From the NCBI GenBank assembly GCA_003144275.1, contig NJBF01000076.1, positions 1 through 9,019 of the forward strand: 9,019 nucleotides of DNA. Reading direction: 5' to 3'. Numbering within the stretch: position 1 is the stretch's first letter; every line of letters begins with the position of its first letter. A program made the translations under genes and the position numbers. The notes beneath the pieces are model-generated. The model did no database searches and was not told the DNA's origin. It saw only the letters and a list, made by a program, of their open reading frames with translations. Positions 373 to 9,019 of this stretch are shown here, in pieces. The DNA is from Candidatus Heimdallarchaeota archaeon B3_Heim (GTDB lineage: Archaea > Asgardarchaeota > Heimdallarchaeia > Hodarchaeales > Hodarchaeaceae).

Positions 373-1041
373 TCAAATTAAGCTTTGTATATCCTCAATC
401 GCTGCAGAGGTAATCCAGCTTACCTTTGTATACACTTTGCGAATCATAAGATTCTTATCAATCAACATACTTAGCCAGGAATGAATTAGAATACTTGGTT
501 CGGTTTCATTTTCATGTGACACTTTATAGGAAATGGTATTATTATTATCAGTAACATTAGCTAATTCTTCAAGTTCATTTGTATATGACAGGACCCCATA
601 GTCATCAACCACATGGCGTATGGTAGCTAAGTCATATGCTGTGAGAAATTGCCACCCTGTAAAGTTGACACCATAAGATAAGGCGTAGTTTTTTAATACT
701 GAGGGAGTGTCAAACAAAGGATCTAATGTAATACAAATAAGCATAACGTCCCTACCGAATGAAGAACCAAAAGCCGTCTGAATCTTTGTGAATTCATAAG
801 TCATCAAATCACAAAAATCATCGGTACAACTAGTATAAATAAATCCAAGCATTATGACCTTTCCTGAGAACTGTTGCAACGTAACTGTTTCATTATCCTG
901 ATTTATCAATGTAAAATCAGGAGCAGGTTTAATATTAGGAAGCATTTGATTCTGACTCAAGGGATAAAGCACGAATGCTGTGCCTACTCCTGCTAAAATC
1001 ATAATACTGATCGCCATTCCAACAATCGTGCTTTGTTCCAT
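373..1041 (-). CDS. sco: SCO1/SenC-family copper chaperone for CuA assembly
   Basis: Single N-terminal TM anchor, then APDFTLINQD and GKVIMLGFIYTSC-x4-C, ITLDPxxDTPxVLKxYA, WxFLT, and the conserved distal His in ILIHS. It lies directly downstream of the cox genes. Confidence 0.93.
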   Translation of the reverse strand: MEQSTIVGMAISIMILAGVGTAFVLYPLSQNQMLPNIKPAPDFTLINQDNETVTLQQFSGKVIMLGFIYTSCTDDFCDLMTYEFTKIQTAFGSSFGRDVMLICITLDPLFDTPSVLKNYALSYGVNFTGWQFLTAYDLATIRHVVDDYGVLSYTNELEELANVTDNNNTISYKVSHENETEPSILIHSWLSMLIDKNLMIRKVYTKVSWITSAAIEDIQSLI

Positions 1042-1072
1042 AGATAAGATCCTCGTTTACATTCTATACGTC

Positions 1073-1423
1073 TTAAATTCCACATAAATAGACAATTGTA
1101 CCCAAGGCTGGAATCATAACCACGGGTAAAGCGATGAACATGGGAATTCCAAACATTACTCCATATACAACCTTGGGGTTTTCTTGGTACTTAATACCCA
1201 TAAAGAAAGCAGCTACCAAATATACTTTCAATAAAGCCAGAGTAATAAGTGCTAAATTAATATATCCTTCCACATTTGCACCTTCTCCAGCTATTTCAGA
1301 GATAAATCCAATATTTAATTCTAAAATCGTTAATAATCCCAATGTAAGAAATACAATAAAATAAGGGCGTTTGACATACTCATGAGAATTTACAGTTTCT
1401 ATTTGTGTTGCCATTTTTACCAT
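1073..1423 (-). CDS. coxD: Prokaryotic cytochrome c oxidase subunit IV family protein (CtaF/CyoD-like)
   Basis: 116 aa with 3 TM helices. The pattern YxxVFxxLxxLTxLE...LAxxKxxLVxxxFMx(I/L)K matches COX4_pro. It starts 18 nt after the subunit I stop. Confidence 0.8.
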   Translation of the reverse strand: MVKMATQIETVNSHEYVKRPYFIVFLTLGLLTILELNIGFISEIAGEGANVEGYINLALITLALLKVYLVAAFFMGIKYQENPKVVYGVMFGIPMFIALPVVMIPALGTIVYLCGI

Positions 1424-1441
1424 CTCTTATAATTTCATTAT

Positions 1442-2977
1442 CTATACTGTGGGAAGTTCATCAATAGCCAGATTAAACGGATCATCACCTGCTGGTGGAC
1501 CCTTCCGGATGCTATAAATCATATTAATTACGAAAATGACTCCTGAAATAAACATTATATATGCCCCAACCGTTGCTAGGAAGTTCCAAAAAGCTAAGAC
1601 ATCAACGTTGCTAAAGGTTGAGTAATCAAAATACCTTCGAGGCATTCCATGCATCCCTGCGATCATCATAGAATTGAAGGTCGTCAAGAACCCAATAATC
1701 CACATGAAACAATGAACCCATGCAAGATTACGATGGTACATTTTGCCAGTCATTTCAGGGAAATAGTTATAGAAAGCACCAATAAGAGCAGTGAGAGCCC
1801 CACCTAAGATAATCATGTGAAAATGACCAACAACAAAAGCTGTATCATGTACAATGATATCGACTGGAACTATGTTCAACCATACTCCAGTAAGCCCCCC
1901 AATTACAAAACCAATAATAAAACCAAAAGGAAATACAATTGGTACCTCCAACTTGATCCTGCCTCCCCACATGGTCAGCAACCAGTTGAACGTTTTAATT
2001 CCAGAAGGAACAGCGATAAGCGAGGTTATTATGGAAAAAAGTGTTGTAGTAAATGCATCAGTTGCTGCACCATAGAGAGTATATTGGTGATGACCCCAAA
2101 CGAGAAATCCGAGGAAAGTAATGACCATCAATGATACTACCATCGATTTGTATCCAAATATCTCATTACGTGAGAACTTCTGTACCATCAGTGATGTTAA
2201 ACCCATGGCTGGTAGAATCATAATATATACAGCGGGATGGGAATAACTCCAGAATACGTGTTGCCATAGGAACGATCCCACACCAAAACCAACTGCTGAA
2301 AAGAAAGCGGTATCAAGAATGCGGTCAGATAGTAGAAGTGCTAATCCAGTTGTAATTAAAGGAGTTGCACATAATTGAATGATTGAAGTAGCCACAATGG
2401 ACCAACTAAATAAGTCAAGTTTTCCCCAGGTTAGCCCAGGTTTACGCATGGATGCTATGGTCATGATAAAATTGATAGCTGAAACTAAAGAAGATACTCC
2501 TGCGAGTAATACACCGATAATCCACATATCTACACCCACACCCCAAAGTTCTGCACTCAACGGTGTGTATAATGTCCAGCCTACAGATGATTGGGCAAAA
2601 AAGATTAGAAATCCAGCTGGTATCAATAACCAGAATGCCGCATTATTCCATCGCGGCCAGTACATATCAGGAGCTCCAATTAATTTCGGTATAAGATAAT
2701 TCCCAAAACCTGCTCCTAAGGGAAAAATCACCATGAAAATCATAATTGTTCCATGAGCAGTAAAAATAATTGAATATAATTCAGCATCGACTATTGTAGC
2801 ACCTGGAAATGCCAATTCTGTTCTCAGAATTAATGCTAAGATACCACCAATAAATACACTTATGATGGCTAAGACTATGTATAGAATTCCAATTTCGGCG
2901 TGATTTGTTGTTCCAATCAGGGTTCTCCAATTTTTATAGAAAGGGGGATGTGTTGTTTCTGTAATTTTTCTCACCAA
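1442..2977 (-). CDS. coxA: Heme-copper oxidase subunit I, A-family, A2 subtype (aa3-like cytochrome c oxidase)
   Basis: All six metal-ligand His are present: H75 (TAHG), H247 (YSHPAVY, with cross-link Tyr251), H296/H297 (WGHH) and H385/H387 (GHFH). D-channel D104/N111/N112, K-channel K328, HDT, GMPRRY and GWTLYTPL are also present. Start is TTG at 2977 or GTG at 2974. Confidence 0.98.
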   Translation of the reverse strand: MVRKITETTHPPFYKNWRTLIGTTNHAEIGILYIVLAIISVFIGGILALILRTELAFPGATIVDAELYSIIFTAHGTIMIFMVIFPLGAGFGNYLIPKLIGAPDMYWPRWNNAAFWLLIPAGFLIFFAQSSVGWTLYTPLSAELWGVGVDMWIIGVLLAGVSSLVSAINFIMTIASMRKPGLTWGKLDLFSWSIVATSIIQLCATPLITTGLALLLSDRILDTAFFSAVGFGVGSFLWQHVFWSYSHPAVYIMILPAMGLTSLMVQKFSRNEIFGYKSMVVSLMVITFLGFLVWGHHQYTLYGAATDAFTTTLFSIITSLIAVPSGIKTFNWLLTMWGGRIKLEVPIVFPFGFIIGFVIGGLTGVWLNIVPVDIIVHDTAFVVGHFHMIILGGALTALIGAFYNYFPEMTGKMYHRNLAWVHCFMWIIGFLTTFNSMMIAGMHGMPRRYFDYSTFSNVDVLAFWNFLATVGAYIMFISGVIFVINMIYSIRKGPPAGDDPFNLAIDELPTV

Positions 2978-2989
2978 ATCAATGTTTAA

Positions 2990-3652
2990 TTATTTTACGA
3001 CGATTTTTGCTTCCATAGAATAGTGCCCAAATCCACAATATTCAGCACAGTGTACCTCATATGTACCTGGAATAGGTACCTGTAAGTAAATAATATTATA
3101 TCTTCCTGGAACCATATCCAGCTTAATACTCAGTTCATGTGCGTAGAAAGAGTGAATGACATCAATAGATGTGATATTAAACATGTATATTTTGTTAACT
3201 TCTATATGAACGATATCTACACTACGAGAACCATTTTCTCTAACAAATGTGAAATTATATTGATACGCAATGACCAAAATTTCTTCATCATAGTCCTCTC
3301 GTTCACTGAAATACGAAGTAGTCGCAGGTAAACTGGCAACAAATAAGGATAATACGATGACTGTCGCAAATATGACCCATCCTATTTCTAAGCGCATTTC
3401 ATTTTGGATTTTTTTTCGAACAGTCTTATTTCCTTCCCTGAATCGAAATACAATATAAATTAGCATTCCAAATACGAGTGATGCAATAAATATCGAAACC
3501 AATATGACCAATGTTAATAGAAACTCAATTTGTGGGGTATATGTGGAATCTGTGGGAGAAGCTCTGGTGGAAATAACATGCTCAACCATGAATAACCCGA
3601 ATATCAAACTACCCAATGAGATTTTATATTTACGTTTCATATTAATTTTCAC
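2990..3652 (-). CDS. coxB: Cytochrome c oxidase subunit II with CuA site and no fused cytochrome c
   Basis: Signal-like N-terminus, two TM helices with the K-channel entry Glu (LEIGW), DVIHSF, and CuA motif CAEYCGFGHYSM (H167, C202, E204, C206, H210, M213). No CxxCH. The true start is probably ATG at 3640. Confidence 0.97.
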   Translation of the reverse strand: MKINMKRKYKISLGSLIFGLFMVEHVISTRASPTDSTYTPQIEFLLTLVILVSIFIASLVFGMLIYIVFRFREGNKTVRKKIQNEMRLEIGWVIFATVIVLSLFVASLPATTSYFSEREDYDEEILVIAYQYNFTFVRENGSRSVDIVHIEVNKIYMFNITSIDVIHSFYAHELSIKLDMVPGRYNIIYLQVPIPGTYEVHCAEYCGFGHYSMEAKIVVK

Positions 3653-3653
3653 C
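3649..3653 (-). promoter_or_regulatory. Shine-Dalgarno-like GGTGA for coxB
   Basis: The minus strand reads GGGTGA-aaattaat-ATG, so GGTGA sits 8 nt before ATG 3640. GGTGA is a common archaeal RBS core. It overlaps the GTG chosen as start by the ORF track. Confidence 0.55.
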
Positions 3654-3668
3654 CATTCTACTTCTCTT

Positions 3669-5120
3669 CTATATTAAATAAACCAGTGTAAACAGAACGA
3701 TCCACACTAAATCGACAAAGTGCCAATAGAGTCCAACTAACTCTAATCCCGCATGGTTTTCTTTTGTAAACCCACCTTGATGAGCTCTAAGTGTAGTAAA
3801 TATAACTAGAAGGACTCCAAAGAACACGTGCGCCCCATGAAGCCCTGTTTGCACATAAAAAGTTGACCCAAACAAATTGGTTGTGGGAGTAAAGTGGTGG
3901 CCAAATAACTCTAAATACTCTGATACTTGAATACTAAGGAAAAGGCTTCCTAATCCAGCAGTTGCTAAAAGATAATTACGGGATATTTTTTGGTTACCTT
4001 GTTTTATTGCATCCACTGATTTTACCATCGTGAAACTGCTGATAATTAAGATAAATGTATTTACTGCCGTTAAAGGAATATTCAAGATTTGGCTTTGATC
4101 TGGCCATTCAGCGCCAGAAGCAACACGAAGCCCGAAAGACGTCCCAATAATCATAGAAAACAAGATCACTTCACTACCTAGGAACAACCACACCCATCCT
4201 TCCTTCGGCCTTTTGAAGAGCTTTTGGGTGAATGTTTCGTTGAAAATAAATGCCAGCAGGAGAATGAAGAATGTCCAGAAAAACCCAAATGCTGCCAATA
4301 CATTATCATCGGTAAAATTTATGATTGCTGCGGCGACAAGTACTGTGCCAAGAGCTAAAGCTGCAGGCCAGAGAGTAACTTCATGTTCTTCATGTGACCC
4401 CTCTCCAGGTGGTTCTATATGTGGTGGCTTTTTGGAAAAACCAGCAAAAACTGTTAGAAATACTATGGCTAATGTTCCAACAAGAACTATTGGTGTTAAT
4501 GCCCCCTCCATTGTTCCACCTGGTAGCATTTCCCCCATTATTGGGATATCTGTGATCAAAGTTCCCCCATAAACGCGGAGTGCTCCCGCTCCTGACACTA
4601 ATGTTAAGAGAAGGTACCCTAAAATTTGACTAAGAATATACACGATCCAAAATAAATAGTGTTGACTGAAGAATCGTTCTTTTCTATAGCTGACGAAATA
4701 TATACGCAATGCTATAGCAAAAAGGAAGTAAGAGGTACCGATTATGGCCCAAATGACCTTATATCCTAAAATTGTACTGAGACTTGCTTCTGATATCCCT
4801 GCAGCTAAATTATCAAAATTAATATATCCAATACCGACATTTCCAGAAGCATCTAAAAATCCAGCTACTCCTGCGACAGCTAACGTCACAATTCCGTAGA
4901 TAAGGAACATAAATGCAACAAATTCAAATTTATCAGCGTAAGTTCGGCATGTACGTTGATCCATAAGTTCTCTTCCCCGAAAAACTTTTTTCACCTTTTT
5001 GCGATTGAAAAAGTCTGTTCTCTCAAATGCAGCAACTATAATTGCTACAAGGAATGTGAATACGCTCAATGCCAAATTAGCGATATGAAAATGTAAGACT
5101 ATTGGATGTAATTCAGCCAT
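3669..5120 (-). CDS. coxC: Cytochrome c oxidase subunit III (full 7-TM form) fused C-terminally to a ~230 aa 5-TM DUF2231-like domain
   Basis: The C-terminal half has TLWP (W251), FLGSEVILF, LNIPLTAVNTFILIISS, QVSEY, TGLHGAHV and YWHFVDLVW, all COX3 motifs. The N-terminal half has LHPIVLHFHIA, AGVAGFLDA and SGAGALRVYGG, resembling DUF2231 (HPxxVHFPI...GGxLVY). COX3 is certain; the DUF2231 assignment is moderate. Confidence 0.9.
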   Translation of the reverse strand: MAELHPIVLHFHIANLALSVFTFLVAIIVAAFERTDFFNRKKVKKVFRGRELMDQRTCRTYADKFEFVAFMFLIYGIVTLAVAGVAGFLDASGNVGIGYINFDNLAAGISEASLSTILGYKVIWAIIGTSYFLFAIALRIYFVSYRKERFFSQHYLFWIVYILSQILGYLLLTLVSGAGALRVYGGTLITDIPIMGEMLPGGTMEGALTPIVLVGTLAIVFLTVFAGFSKKPPHIEPPGEGSHEEHEVTLWPAALALGTVLVAAAIINFTDDNVLAAFGFFWTFFILLLAFIFNETFTQKLFKRPKEGWVWLFLGSEVILFSMIIGTSFGLRVASGAEWPDQSQILNIPLTAVNTFILIISSFTMVKSVDAIKQGNQKISRNYLLATAGLGSLFLSIQVSEYLELFGHHFTPTTNLFGSTFYVQTGLHGAHVFFGVLLVIFTTLRAHQGGFTKENHAGLELVGLYWHFVDLVWIVLFTLVYLI

Positions 5121-5908
5121 TATAGATCACCAGTTTTTAGATCATAATCAGTCTTCGGAGGGCGCCCTTTACTATCTACATAGATTAACAAACCAGTTAA
5201 GGTTACGAAAAAGGCCAAGGCTAATATAAACGCTTGACTGAAATCATATTTCAAGATACTAGCGCCTTTTAAATTCCAGAAAATCGTTCCTCGACTCACA
5301 CCTGCATGCTGATCCAAGAAATTGTCTGTGGTCCCATATGCCCAGATTATTGTAATTTCTCCCACTAATGGAATGGTATTATCATAATCAGTATCTGATG
5401 TAACAATATTCCGTTCAAATTCAATAATAGTTGTTTGGTCACTTTCGCTCCCATTAAAAGCGAGAATATTGTCTTGTCCACCTAATTCAGTATCGGGTGG
5501 ATGGGGACCGTAGTCCCCAATACTAAAAGCATCTATCATACTAACCGTACCATTAGAACTAATCCACCCAAAATACATATCAGCATCCTTCATTCTGACA
5601 GATGGATCTATACCAATTGCTACCCACCCAGTAGTTTGTACTTCCATTGCAATAAAGATTGTATTTTCATCTGTAGCTTGCCAATGAAGGATAAAATTGT
5701 CTTCATCAATACTTTGCTTATTTGAATACTCTCCATGATTGATAACGCCATCCAGCACACTCTCAGATAATTTATTTGGCGTTGCTTGTATAGAAACAAC
5801 TGTAGAAGTAATCATTAACATAAACACCAAAAAATGTAACATTTGTCTATAATTCGTATTTATTCGTAATTTGGTACCATGTAGCTTGTTCATTGCAGAA
5901 ATCTCCAT
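5120..5908 (-). CDS. Secreted, C-terminally membrane-anchored DOMON-domain protein, putative heme b (Met/His) binding
   Basis: Signal peptide ending ...VSIQA, then LHW, GWVAIG, M106-KDADMYFGW, EFER, IIWAYG and H201, then a C-terminal TM helix (AFILALAFFVTLTGLLIYV). Its TAA overlaps the coxC ATG by 1 nt (TAATG at 5122-5118). Confidence 0.88.
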   Translation of the reverse strand: MEISAMNKLHGTKLRINTNYRQMLHFLVFMLMITSTVVSIQATPNKLSESVLDGVINHGEYSNKQSIDEDNFILHWQATDENTIFIAMEVQTTGWVAIGIDPSVRMKDADMYFGWISSNGTVSMIDAFSIGDYGPHPPDTELGGQDNILAFNGSESDQTTIIEFERNIVTSDTDYDNTIPLVGEITIIWAYGTTDNFLDQHAGVSRGTIFWNLKGASILKYDFSQAFILALAFFVTLTGLLIYVDSKGRPPKTDYDLKTGDL

Positions 5909-5950
5909 CGGGGGTTATATTTTTGGTGCAGAGGACGAAAAAATCATCAT

Positions 5951-5963
5951 TTGTTATTAACAA
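5951..5963. promoter_or_regulatory. Perfect 6-1-6 palindrome TTGTTA-T-TAACAA, candidate operator upstream of the cox operon
   Basis: Seen directly, 43 nt upstream of the DOMON ATG. Related half-sites are TTGTGA (5968-5973) and TTGTTA (5987-5992). Function is inferred. Confidence 0.4.
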
Positions 5964-5999
5964 TCGTTTGTGAAATTCGAATAAGATTGTTACTTCTAT

Positions 6000-6016
6000 T
6001 TATTTAAGAGTTTCTT
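6000..6016 (-). promoter_or_regulatory. Candidate archaeal BRE/TATA promoter of the cox operon
   Basis: The minus strand reads AAGAAACTC-TTAAATAA, a purine-rich BRE-like run directly before a TATA-like box, about 90 nt upstream of ATG 5908. The intergenic region is AT-rich, so chance matches are possible. Confidence 0.35.
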
Positions 6017-6343
6017 ATGAATTTACACACAATTCCAGATTATCTCTATATAATTTGGACCAGACTCAAATCTACCTCTAACTCAGTTAATATCTCTAAT
6101 TATCTCACAGAGATTAATTACTTATGGAATTGTTTGTATTCTGCAATTTATGCTTATTTTCTATTAGCGTTTCATATTTCTTAGATTACGACAATGTAAA
6201 TGTCCCCAATTGACATCTTTTAAGGAACATTCATTTATTTCTCTATCTTCATAAAAGCTAGATTAATAATATATTATACTTAATACTATCTTAAACTTCA
6301 GTAGGATATTTCAAACTACAAGAAAGATAAGCTGGCTCTAAAA

Positions 6344-7501
6344 ATGAGTGAACAGAAGCATAGTAACCAATTCCATTCTAGTAACTATGCCATTTTCTTT
6401 CATGATCTTCAAGGAAAAATCCTTGATATTGACCAAAAGGGATTAGAGCTTTTTGGATACACAAAAGCAGAGATTTTTAATTTAAAAATTTCTGATCTAC
6501 ATCCTCCCGAATTTCTTGAAGAATCGAAACGAGCATTTGATACGATCACAAAAATGGGGTATGTAGATTTTGAGATTGACTTTCTGAAAAAGGGTGGTGA
6601 AGTATTTTCTGCAGAAGCCTCCTCAAGAATATTTGATATTAGCGGGGAAAAGGTTATTCAAGGTATTGTACGAGATATCACAGAACAAAAAAGAGTGAAA
6701 GAAACATTACGAGCATCAGAAGAAAAATATCGAACCCTTCTCGAAAATATAGAAGATAGTTATTATGAGGTAGATCTAGCTGGTAATTTTACCTTTTTCA
6801 ACAAAAATTTGCCCAAGATTTTGGGATACACTGAAAAAGAAATCATGGGAATGAATTATAGACAATACTGTAGTGAATCAGTCGCTATACAGGTATTAAA
6901 GGCATTCAATGACGTATACGTAACAGGAAAACCAGTAAAAGAGTTTGAACTGAAATTTATTAACAGAGATGGTGCAACAAGGTATTCAGAGGTGTCTATA
7001 TCTCTCATACTTGACTCTTCAAGAAAAAAAAATGGATTCAGAGGGATAATTCGTGAGACTTCTGAACGAAGAAGAGCTGAAATTGCATTACAGGAAGCTA
7101 AAGAAAAATATCAAATGCTCATTAATAAAATGGAGGAAGGGGTTGTATTAGAGGATTCCCAAGGTTTCTTCACCTTCACTAATCCCCAAGTAACGAGCCT
7201 ATTAGGATACGAAGAAGAAGAATTAATCGGTAGGCACTGGTCAGATTTTATTTCACCTGAATCTTTGGAAATGGTTAAAAGTGAGACGGCTAAACGAAAG
7301 GAAGGCTTCAGTAGTAGATATGAGACAGTAGCATTAGGAAAAAATGGCAAACGAATACCGATAATAGTAACTGCAACTCCTATTCATTCCAAGAAAGATG
7401 ATTTTGAAGGTGTCTTAGTAGTTTTCACTGATATCTCAAAACTGAAAAATGTCTCAAAGTTTCAAAAAAAAATCATCCAAAAACAGTTTGAAAGTTCCTG
7501 A
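6344..7501 (+). CDS. Triple PAS/PAC sensor protein, probably the truncated N-terminal part of a sensor kinase or similar
   Basis: Three PAS repeats (LFGYT..EI, ILGYTEKEIMG, LLGYEEEELIG), each ending in a PAC motif (IVRDITEQK, IIRETSERR, VFTDISKLK). The first two are joined by SEEKYRTLLE/AKEKYQMLIN linkers. There is no HisKA, GGDEF or REC domain, and the last ~17 residues are not linker-like. Confidence 0.9.
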   Translation: MSEQKHSNQFHSSNYAIFFHDLQGKILDIDQKGLELFGYTKAEIFNLKISDLHPPEFLEESKRAFDTITKMGYVDFEIDFLKKGGEVFSAEASSRIFDISGEKVIQGIVRDITEQKRVKETLRASEEKYRTLLENIEDSYYEVDLAGNFTFFNKNLPKILGYTEKEIMGMNYRQYCSESVAIQVLKAFNDVYVTGKPVKEFELKFINRDGATRYSEVSISLILDSSRKKNGFRGIIRETSERRRAEIALQEAKEKYQMLINKMEEGVVLEDSQGFFTFTNPQVTSLLGYEEEELIGRHWSDFISPESLEMVKSETAKRKEGFSSRYETVALGKNGKRIPIIVTATPIHSKKDDFEGVLVVFTDISKLKNVSKFQKKIIQKQFESS

Positions 7502-8399: not shown

Positions 8400-9019
8400 T
8401 TATAATGTAGGGTTTAAAACGCGCGAATGAATAGTAATTTCTTTAGTTGAAGGATCTTGTAACACTGCGACTATGTCTCTGTCTTCTGGAAAAGTTACAT
8501 TCAAGGCACTAGCCGCATTCATAGCGTCAGTAGCTGATATATGTAAAGGGTCCCCAGCACGTAGCCGAAGGTATTTACAAGTTATTTCCTCGTCCGAAGA
8601 AGTTGATGATGACGGAGGTGTTGGAAGGCGTCGTTTAGGACGTCTAGTCGAAGGTTGTTTCTTAGAGGGTGGACGATTTGAGTTGATTATTGGTATGAGC
8701 GGCGATAATCGTTTTGGAGGCTTACGTTGTCGGGAAGAACGACGAAGGACTGTTGGTTCTTCAAGACCCGACAGTGATTCGGCTTTGGACGCCGAGTGAA
8801 CTTTCAACACTGGCGGAGGAGTATCCGCAAGTGTCAGGTTCGGAGGTGAATGAGAACCTTGTGAAGGGATAGATTCCACAACAGGGATGCCCGACAACTT
8901 TGGCAAGTTGATATCACGTGGCGCTGGAACAGGATCAGTAATCTGATGGTGATGTTGTATGGTTGGTTGATCCGGAGATAAATTCATCTTACATCCATCC
9001 GGGTGTAGTTCCACTGCAT
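8400..9019 (-). CDS. C-terminal part of a larger eukaryote-type ORF, probably a retrotransposon Pol/integrase tail (runs off the right edge)
   Basis: The frame stays open upstream of the GTG called as start (GCA-GTG-GAA), so it is 5'-partial. It is Pro/Ser/Arg-rich and looks disordered, contains LRRSSRQRKPPKRL, and ends in a ~60 aa folded-looking segment. GC is ~46% by hand count (275/600), higher than the cox genes. Confidence 0.6.
   Translation of the reverse strand, partial: AVELHPDGCKMNLSPDQPTIQHHHQITDPVPAPRDINLPKLSGIPVVESIPSQGSHSPPNLTLADTPPPVLKVHSASKAESLSGLEEPTVLRRSSRQRKPPKRLSPLIPIINSNRPPSKKQPSTRRPKRRLPTPPSSSTSSDEEITCKYLRLRAGDPLHISATDAMNAASALNVTFPEDRDIVAVLQDPSTKEITIHSRVLNPTL

Follow-up and report, generated by a model that had tools for sequence, protein, structure and literature searches.

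A candidate electron-entry module of a DOMON protein and a DUF2231-related domain fused to subunit III in the CuA oxidase operon of a Hodarchaeales archaeon

The window analysed here is one entire contig (C92, 9,019 bp) of a Hodarchaeales metagenome-assembled genome (MAG; Candidatus Heimdallarchaeota archaeon B3_Heim, labelled G000), with an assembly of 3.95 Mb in 103 contigs and a completeness of 94%. It contains a haem-copper oxidase operon of six minus-strand genes in one orientation, which may bring its own electron-input parts. In operon order the genes encode a DOMON protein (positions 5120-5908, 262 aa), a 483-aa fused protein (3669-5120), subunit II or CoxB (2990-3652), subunit I or CoxA (1442-2977), a small CoxD-like subunit IV of 116 aa (1073-1423) and a Sco/SenC-type copper chaperone (373-1041). 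The fused protein consists of an extra N-terminal domain with five transmembrane (TM) helices (aa 1-245, nt 4386-5120) and of subunit III or CoxC (aa 246-483 plus stop, nt 3669-4385) with seven TM helices. The stop codon of the DOMON gene and the start codon of the fused gene overlap in TAATG, and the remaining gaps in order are 16, 12, 18 and 31 nt. A motif scan of the translations showed that CxxCH is absent from all six proteins. This order, the TAATG coupling, the tight spacing and the lack of CxxCH had been described in an original prediction for the locus and were borne out by the open reading frames (ORFs).

The DOMON protein matched PF03351 with E 3e-27 and 95.6 bits (cut-off 32.7). 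Its N-terminus resembles a signal or anchor helix, the beta-sandwich lies at aa 69-192 (nt 5333-5704), and a C-terminal TM helix at aa 225-246 (nt 5171-5236) is unusually conserved among the cox-linked copies. The protein has no cysteine. Its AlphaFold2 (AF2) model (pLDDT 81) produced Foldseek matches with the DOMON of dopamine beta-hydroxylase (E 1.5e-6) and with the cytochrome domains of cellobiose dehydrogenase (CDH) and pyranose dehydrogenase (E 1e-5 to 1e-3), while the DOMON profile gave no useful match among PDB sequences, the similarity to the CDH cytochrome not being detectable by sequence. In the alignment, Met106 (nt 5591-5593) was present in 19 of 19 relatives and His201 (nt 5306-5308) was at least 90% conserved, and several relatives that kept this candidate ligand pair carry a fused cytochrome b561 (PF03188). 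The spacing of the pair resembles that of M90 and H174, the proposed haem ligands of the Arabidopsis CYBDOM protein HYP1 (PMC10784544). The DOMON fold also has CBM9 matches and DOMON-superfamily domains can bind sugars; haem is favoured over sugar binding here because the Met is invariant and the His conserved. The DOMON most likely holds one haem b through Met106 and His201, and the Met/His haem-b type assigned to it originally agrees with both the alignment and the fold.

Strict anaerobes such as Methanothrix, Thermoplasmatota, Spirochaetota and Dehalococcoidia commonly carry this DOMON subfamily, and small membrane proteins with His often come next to it there. Because it is common in anaerobes without oxidases, the DOMON is an outer-face module of general use, taken up by the oxidase in this lineage, and not an oxidase-specific part. 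The source genome has a second DOMON paralogue of 266 aa with the Met/His pair kept (contig C85, positions 3937-4737), whose neighbours are a TauE/SafE exporter and a pyridine-nucleotide disulfide oxidoreductase, with no oxidase. In Chloroflexota and Thermococcaceae, small His-bearing membrane proteins (82-120 aa) trail the DOMON relatives in seven loci and are possible minimal haem-b partners. One further DOMON, part of a 1741-aa protein in another archaeon, was set aside as irrelevant to the operon.

The extra domain of the fused protein (residues 1-245) had no significant Pfam match, the best being PF09990 (DUF2231) with E 0.39 and 11.2 bits versus a cut-off of 26.4. However, its profile matched 166-aa Asgard proteins in hhalign with a probability of 99% (E 1e-18), and these proteins matched PF09990 over the full length with E 8e-5 and 23.1 bits, which is below the 26.4 threshold. 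The label of a DUF2231-like domain given in the original prediction was weak as a direct match and was retained through this transitive link, so that the domain is best described from its profiles as a remote relative of DUF2231, short of a demonstrated member. Relatives are few, with only 19 among 1.84 billion representative proteins, and a homologue search with the alignment profile of the domain returned only five proteins. The AF2 model (pLDDT 84, pTM 0.78) showed five long helices and a short outer-face helix. By the distribution of Lys and Arg the domain starts on the outside, in keeping with a subunit III whose own N-terminus lies inside.

Seven residues of the extra domain were invariant in the alignment: His5 (nt 5106-5108), His10 (nt 5091-5093), Gly76, Gly87, Ala91, Lys121 (nt 4758-4760) and Gly179. 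The two histidines and Lys121 are predicted at the outer face, where a D90-A-S-G motif is also predicted, and the conserved polar residues His5, His10, Asp90 and Lys121 cluster at the outer membrane surface. No match to PF03188 (b561) was found in the Pfam search and no four-His pattern in the alignment. Structural searches with the model produced nothing at E ≤ 0.001 in the PDB with Foldseek and a TM-score of at most 0.46 in the ESM Atlas. Subunit III chains among the fold matches raised the possibility of a duplicated CoxC, which was rejected when hhalign against the CoxC part showed no relation.

Stand-alone relatives of the extra domain sit directly after the gene for a membrane-anchored outer-face redox protein, the kind of which varies. 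The upstream carrier was a DOMON in one locus (genome G078), a plastocyanin-type cupredoxin in another (PF00127, E 5e-7) and a monohaem cytochrome c in two more. In family f31, where the domain occurs in 34 genomes, a monohaem cytochrome c (CxxCH or CX4CH) lay upstream in all ten sampled loci that had the upstream gene on the fetched DNA. Exceptions were the stand-alone copies in G069, G070 and G060, which adjoin a major facilitator superfamily transporter or an Ig-domain protein. Because the stand-alone relatives follow genes of outer-face carriers, these neighbourhoods argue for the extra domain as the membrane partner of tethered one-electron carriers.

Two other arrangements were observed among the relatives. 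In families f5 and f6 (six loci), the stand-alone gene is flanked by a secreted protein of 300-315 aa and a LanC-like protein, and the secreted proteins upstream were weakly DOMON-like (hhalign E 0.0018, probability 15%). In f31 (eleven loci), the monohaem cytochrome c with Ig-like domain and C-terminal anchor and the 166-aa DUF2231-like protein are followed by a 392-aa HdrD-like protein, predicted to be cytoplasmic and carrying CCG domains and 4Fe-4S clusters; from its gene content this three-gene set looks like an undescribed trans-membrane redox unit. MqnA/D (PF02621), sought as a sign of quinones in f31, whose lack would count against a quinol site, gave no match in f31, but likewise none in the genus of the source genome.

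The identical six-gene order was present in two Hodarchaeota MAGs (L001 and L002), with a DOMON identity of 60-65%. A profile of the extra domain searched against 400 Asgard genomes found the fused form of about 480 aa in seven genomes, in all of which a DOMON gene precedes the fused gene and CoxB is next wherever the contig continues. With this recurrence in L001, L002 and the seven genomes, the layout is not a product of chance. The original prediction had proposed to look for a DOMON gene and an N-terminally extended coxC beside cox genes in relatives, and at least eight congeneric genomes have the two together at the operon head. In one-genome-per-species data, six of the 80 nearest DOMON loci had the fused gene and cox genes and all six were from Heimdall-group Asgards. 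The genes upstream of the operon in L001 and L002 (bPH, an RHH regulator and unknowns) were no conserved part of it.

A second type of operon was found in the same genus (G069 and G070), with the order coxB-coxA-coxC-coxD, an unfused coxC of 277 aa and no DOMON. In G070, a membrane-anchored EB_dh-like protein of the DOMON superfamily is encoded 2 kb downstream of coxD (locus L058, positions 11800-12702), with a match to PF09459 (E 1.6e-7) just under the cut-off. In addition, three other Heimdall-group MAGs have a CydB-like gene (bd subunit II motif WDGNEVWL) immediately upstream of the DOMON-cox operon, which implies that two oxidases are clustered there.

Residues 310-482 of the fused protein matched COX3 (PF00510, E 2e-24), the CoxC part also matched the NCBIfam models CtaE, CyoC and QoxC, and the L001 orthologue spans COX3 profile positions 12-255; the NCBI annotation of the fused protein is subunit III only. 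CoxA matched PF00115 (E 8e-137) and TIGR02891 (E 1e-158) and carries YSHPAVY at aa 245-251. Subunit I of A-family haem-copper oxidases has a His-Tyr motif on helix VI, and YSHPxVY in place of the Glu-containing motif marks the A2 subtype; CoxA is, by its sequence, subunit I of an A2-type A-family haem-copper oxygen reductase. The COX1 gene is single-copy in the genome. CoxD matched PF03626 with E 9e-7 and 29.6 bits versus a cut-off of 28.9.

CoxB matched TIGR02866 (E 3e-40), PF00116 and PF02790. Its CuA site is complete (H167, C202, C206, H210 and M213; loop at nt 3014-3052) and the motif is kept in relatives. The electron-entry motif is YQYNF without Trp (aa 130-134, nt 3251-3265). CoxB of the DOMON-type operons reads AYQYNFTF at this place, the canonical QWYW being replaced by QYNF (once QYYF), with Trp in none of them, whereas the Trp was kept in CoxB of the DOMON-less operons of G070 and G078. 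We take this residue to be the equivalent of Trp121 in Paracoccus, with a role in electron entry. The loss of the Trp in DOMON-type operons suggests a changed electron donor.

The Sco protein matched PF02630 (E 4e-20) and has a C-x4-C motif (CTDDFC, aa 72-77, nt 811-828) versus the canonical CxxxC, with His187 retained; the same variant was present in L001 (CEDDLC) and L002 (CTDDLC). With Sco in the same operon, the DOMON and the DUF2231-like domain could be a metal-handling accessory outside the catalytic path, for example an outer-face cupric reductase that works with Sco to provide the Cu(I) for assembling CuA and CuB. The outer-face His-rich motifs could bind copper, and the CYBDOM proteins of eukaryotes act as reductases of Fe(III) and Cu(II) (PMC10784544). 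However, a domain fused to a structural subunit implies a permanent and stoichiometric part of the enzyme, and such a 1:1 presence is unusual for an assembly factor. The partners of related domains, cytochrome c with an HdrD-like FeS protein or a cupredoxin, are those of electron-chain contexts, and the entry Trp was lost specifically in the DOMON-type operons. A role in metal handling was thus considered quite unlikely.

The usual electron donors were searched for in the source genome with profiles. No Rieske protein, bc1-type cytochrome b (PF00033), NrfD, PF00127, SoxE or PF13442 match was found in it, and no class-I cytochrome c; without NrfD there is no alternative complex III (ACIII). The donor searches were positive in archaeal controls, for cytochrome b in Sulfolobus and Haloferax. 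Cytochrome b was found in 0 of the 22 genomes of the genus and in 5 of 83 across the class. The oxidase was present in 12 of the 22, with COX1 in full in nine, the other three having the operon at a contig end or no scored COX1 match. Rieske matches in the genus were rejected as complex III Rieske proteins, those of 336 aa being VanA-type oxygenases and the others small proteins of ferredoxin size. CxxCH occurred in only 37 ORFs of the source genome, none of which resembles a secreted small cytochrome. A cytochrome bd oxidase gene was found in the genome, which implies a quinone/quinol pool.

A cytochrome c or cupredoxin as the usual small donor, perhaps with complex III, might have been missed in the MAGs or be too divergent for the profiles, the DOMON then being a non-redox surface or sugar-binding domain. 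The source genome is incomplete and fragmented, the CBM9 matches allow for sugar binding, and qcrABC is reported for some Hodarchaeales MAGs by Appler et al. (bioRxiv 10.1101/2024.07.04.601786). Set against this are the genus-wide absence of cytochrome b in a search that worked in its controls, the CxxCH scan without a small secreted cytochrome, and the invariant Met with a conserved His, which favours haem over sugar. This explanation was regarded as very improbable.

The contact between the DOMON and the extra domain was modelled as a complex of DOMON residues 44-262 and extra-domain residues 1-250 with custom alignments and a riding haem, which is unscored in the model and carries no information on ligands. 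The model reached an ipSAE of 0.71 versus 0.00 for the best control. Of 80 solved complexes 58 attained that mark, as did 2 of 110 mismatched pairs; these counts are a rough guide here since the calibration used neither custom alignments nor ligands. The runs shared at least 81% of contacts and the partner pLDDT was at least 74. In the predicted interface, DOMON helix 220-248 packs against TM3 (119-146), TM5 (216-230) and the outer-face helix 109-114 of the extra domain in a parallel arrangement that is consistent in topology. The model supports docking of the C-terminal helix of the DOMON on the extra domain.

We consider it somewhat probable that the operon encodes an A2-type CuA oxidase with a built-in entry module, in which the haem b of a DOMON tethered to the extra domain donates to CuA and the electrons come most likely from quinol. 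The secreted DOMON domain with haem b at Met106 and His201 would sit on the outer face, and its C-terminal helix would tether it to the five-helix domain fused to subunit III. A one-electron carrier would thereby be held permanently beside CuA, replacing a soluble cytochrome c or blue copper protein. The extra domain would take electrons from the membrane quinol pool and pass them to the DOMON haem, and the enzyme would in effect be a quinol oxidase that still uses CuA. A quinol source is proposed because no complex III was found in the genus and because the extra domain has a conserved outer-face polar cluster. The passage of electrons from quinol through this polar site is the weakest step and is put forward tentatively, as a doubtful one. 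In a wider and similarly doubtful proposal, the DUF2231-related domain would be an unrecognised redox module that passes quinol electrons at its outer-face His/Asp/Lys site to a tethered carrier, a minimal stand-in for complex III and cytochrome c. In Hodarchaeales the module would be fused with subunit III and paired with a DOMON haem b, which would make the CuA oxidase a self-contained quinol oxidase, and it would be wired to cytochrome c, cupredoxin or HdrD-like proteins in other Asgards.

Several points weigh against an entry module of this kind. All genomes compared are MAGs. G069 and G070 run a DOMON-less oxidase operon yet are also without cytochrome b, so the lack of complex III does not in itself single out the DOMON. 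Of the 80 nearest DOMON loci, 74 are without both cox genes and the extra domain. The only invariant histidines of the extra domain, His5 and His10, are both in helix 1 at the outer face and give no sign of a transmembrane haem; the split CYBDOM-like transmembrane wire of the original prediction is therefore not supported. No known quinol-site signature was recognised in the extra domain. In VIA-align, its best match among 48,161 chains was a generic four-helix bundle with Z 11, which is below the level meaningful for helical bundles, and the match to b561 (4o6y) had Z 8.6, no better than unrelated bundles. The confident docking contacts consist of helix packing and leave the placement of the beta-sandwich with respect to CuA unconstrained, and the docking controls may not have been membrane proteins. 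Finally, CcmC, CcmE and CcmF are encoded in the source genome, as is a pentahaem cytochrome c with a membrane anchor, which is possibly the true donor.

CcmE and CcmF are encoded on contig C58 (positions 6605-13501) beside a 794-aa glycoside hydrolase (GH)-like protein and the cytochrome itself, an N-terminally anchored protein of 474 aa with five CxxCH motifs; no other multihaem cytochrome was found in the genome. The original prediction of an oxidase fed without cytochrome c thus stood as regards Rieske protein, cytochrome b, blue copper protein and class-I cytochrome c, and was qualified by the Ccm genes and this protein. The DOMON could donate to CuA and itself receive its electrons from a c-type cytochrome, for instance the pentahaem one, with the extra domain as a docking scaffold free of redox or quinol chemistry. 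The lack of a cofactor-binding signature in the extra domain and the pure helix packing of the confident interface would agree with a scaffold. However, the pentahaem cytochrome was present in 18 of the 22 genomes of the genus, with or without the oxidase, and at least five of its carriers have no oxidase gene or fused-domain match; because it occurs in genomes without the oxidase, it is not oxidase-linked. A scaffold would also leave the invariant His5, His10 and Lys121 unexplained across very distant relatives. Reduction of the DOMON by a c-type cytochrome was judged unlikely, and the tethered DOMON fed through the extra domain was kept as the preferred reading.

Outside the operon, an AT-rich intergenic region of about 31% GC (positions 5909-6343) separates the DOMON gene from a divergent PAS gene and is the presumed promoter region of the operon. 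No RNA data set was listed as containing the operon, and the DNA data sets listed shared a small part of its sequence words. The PAS gene (6344-7501, plus strand) encodes a 385-aa protein with three PAS domains and no output domain, a possible O2 or redox sensor. The gene is not kept at this position in L001 and L002, its place being taken there by an RHH_8 regulator or unknown genes. At the end of the window (8400-9017, minus strand), a Pro/Ser/Arg-rich ORF of about 205 aa without Pfam match is open at the contig end, and the GC content of this part is 0.40 versus about 0.35 elsewhere.

The DOMON neighbours of Complex IV operons in Hodarchaeales and Kariarchaeaceae were noted before, by Appler et al. 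2024 (bioRxiv 10.1101/2024.07.04.601786), and the earlier statement that no oxidase with such a layout had been described does not hold in this respect. In their scheme the electrons are drawn as coming from complex III and cytochrome c, neither of which was found in this genus. A search of their text found no mention of the DUF2231-like domain fused to CoxC, a genus without cytochrome b, the loss of the CoxB Trp or the pairing of the domain with carriers. Within the literature searched, the DUF2231-related fusion, its pairing with different carriers, the genus-wide absence of cytochrome b, the change of the CoxB motif and the predicted docking were not found.

Hodarchaeales are currently ranked as the closest archaeal kin of eukaryotes, and the question of whether and how they breathe O2 bears on models of eukaryogenesis. 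Published reconstructions give them a mitochondrion-like chain of complex III, cytochrome c and complex IV; with the first two not found in this genus, the oxidase operon supplies candidate electron-input parts of its own. If true, the proposed module would be a new way to feed a CuA oxidase, and the DUF2231-type membrane family would have its first assigned function.

Archaea usually employ carriers other than cytochrome c. Oxidases with built-in or dedicated donors include caa3, in which cytochrome c is fused to subunit II, the ACIII-aa3 supercomplex, and SoxM and SoxABCD of Sulfolobus with sulfocyanin and CbsAB. As in caa3, ACIII-aa3 and SoxM/SoxABCD, the donor is proposed here to be a fixed part of a CuA oxidase, so that a diffusible carrier would be unneeded. 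The carrier would however be a DOMON with a proposed haem b, attached at an extra domain of subunit III, and the NrfD, Rieske and cytochrome b partners of those systems are absent here. In CDH, the haem-b domain is mobile and passes single electrons to a copper centre, that of lytic polysaccharide monooxygenase. The DOMON shares the beta-sandwich fold with the cytochrome domains of CDH and pyranose dehydrogenase (PDB 4qi3, 1d7c and 6jt6), but these belong to secreted fungal flavoenzymes, whereas the DOMON here is predicted to be membrane-tethered and lies in one operon with a respiratory oxidase. DUF2231 (PF09990) is an uncharacterised family of four TM helices with an HPxxxHFP motif; the extra domain shares an HP-x3-HF(H/P)I N-terminus and the four-helix core with it, and differs by a fifth helix, the inserted outer-face helix and the fusion to CoxC. 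A further likeness in layout is with the CYBDOM proteins (DOMON and b561, for example HYP1; PMC10784544), in which an outer-face DOMON of the Met/His haem-b type is joined to a helical membrane partner. In the operon described here, the membrane partner is not a b561, the two parts are separate polypeptides, and the likely acceptor would be the CuA of the oxidase in place of the Fe(III) and Cu(II) chelates of CYBDOM.

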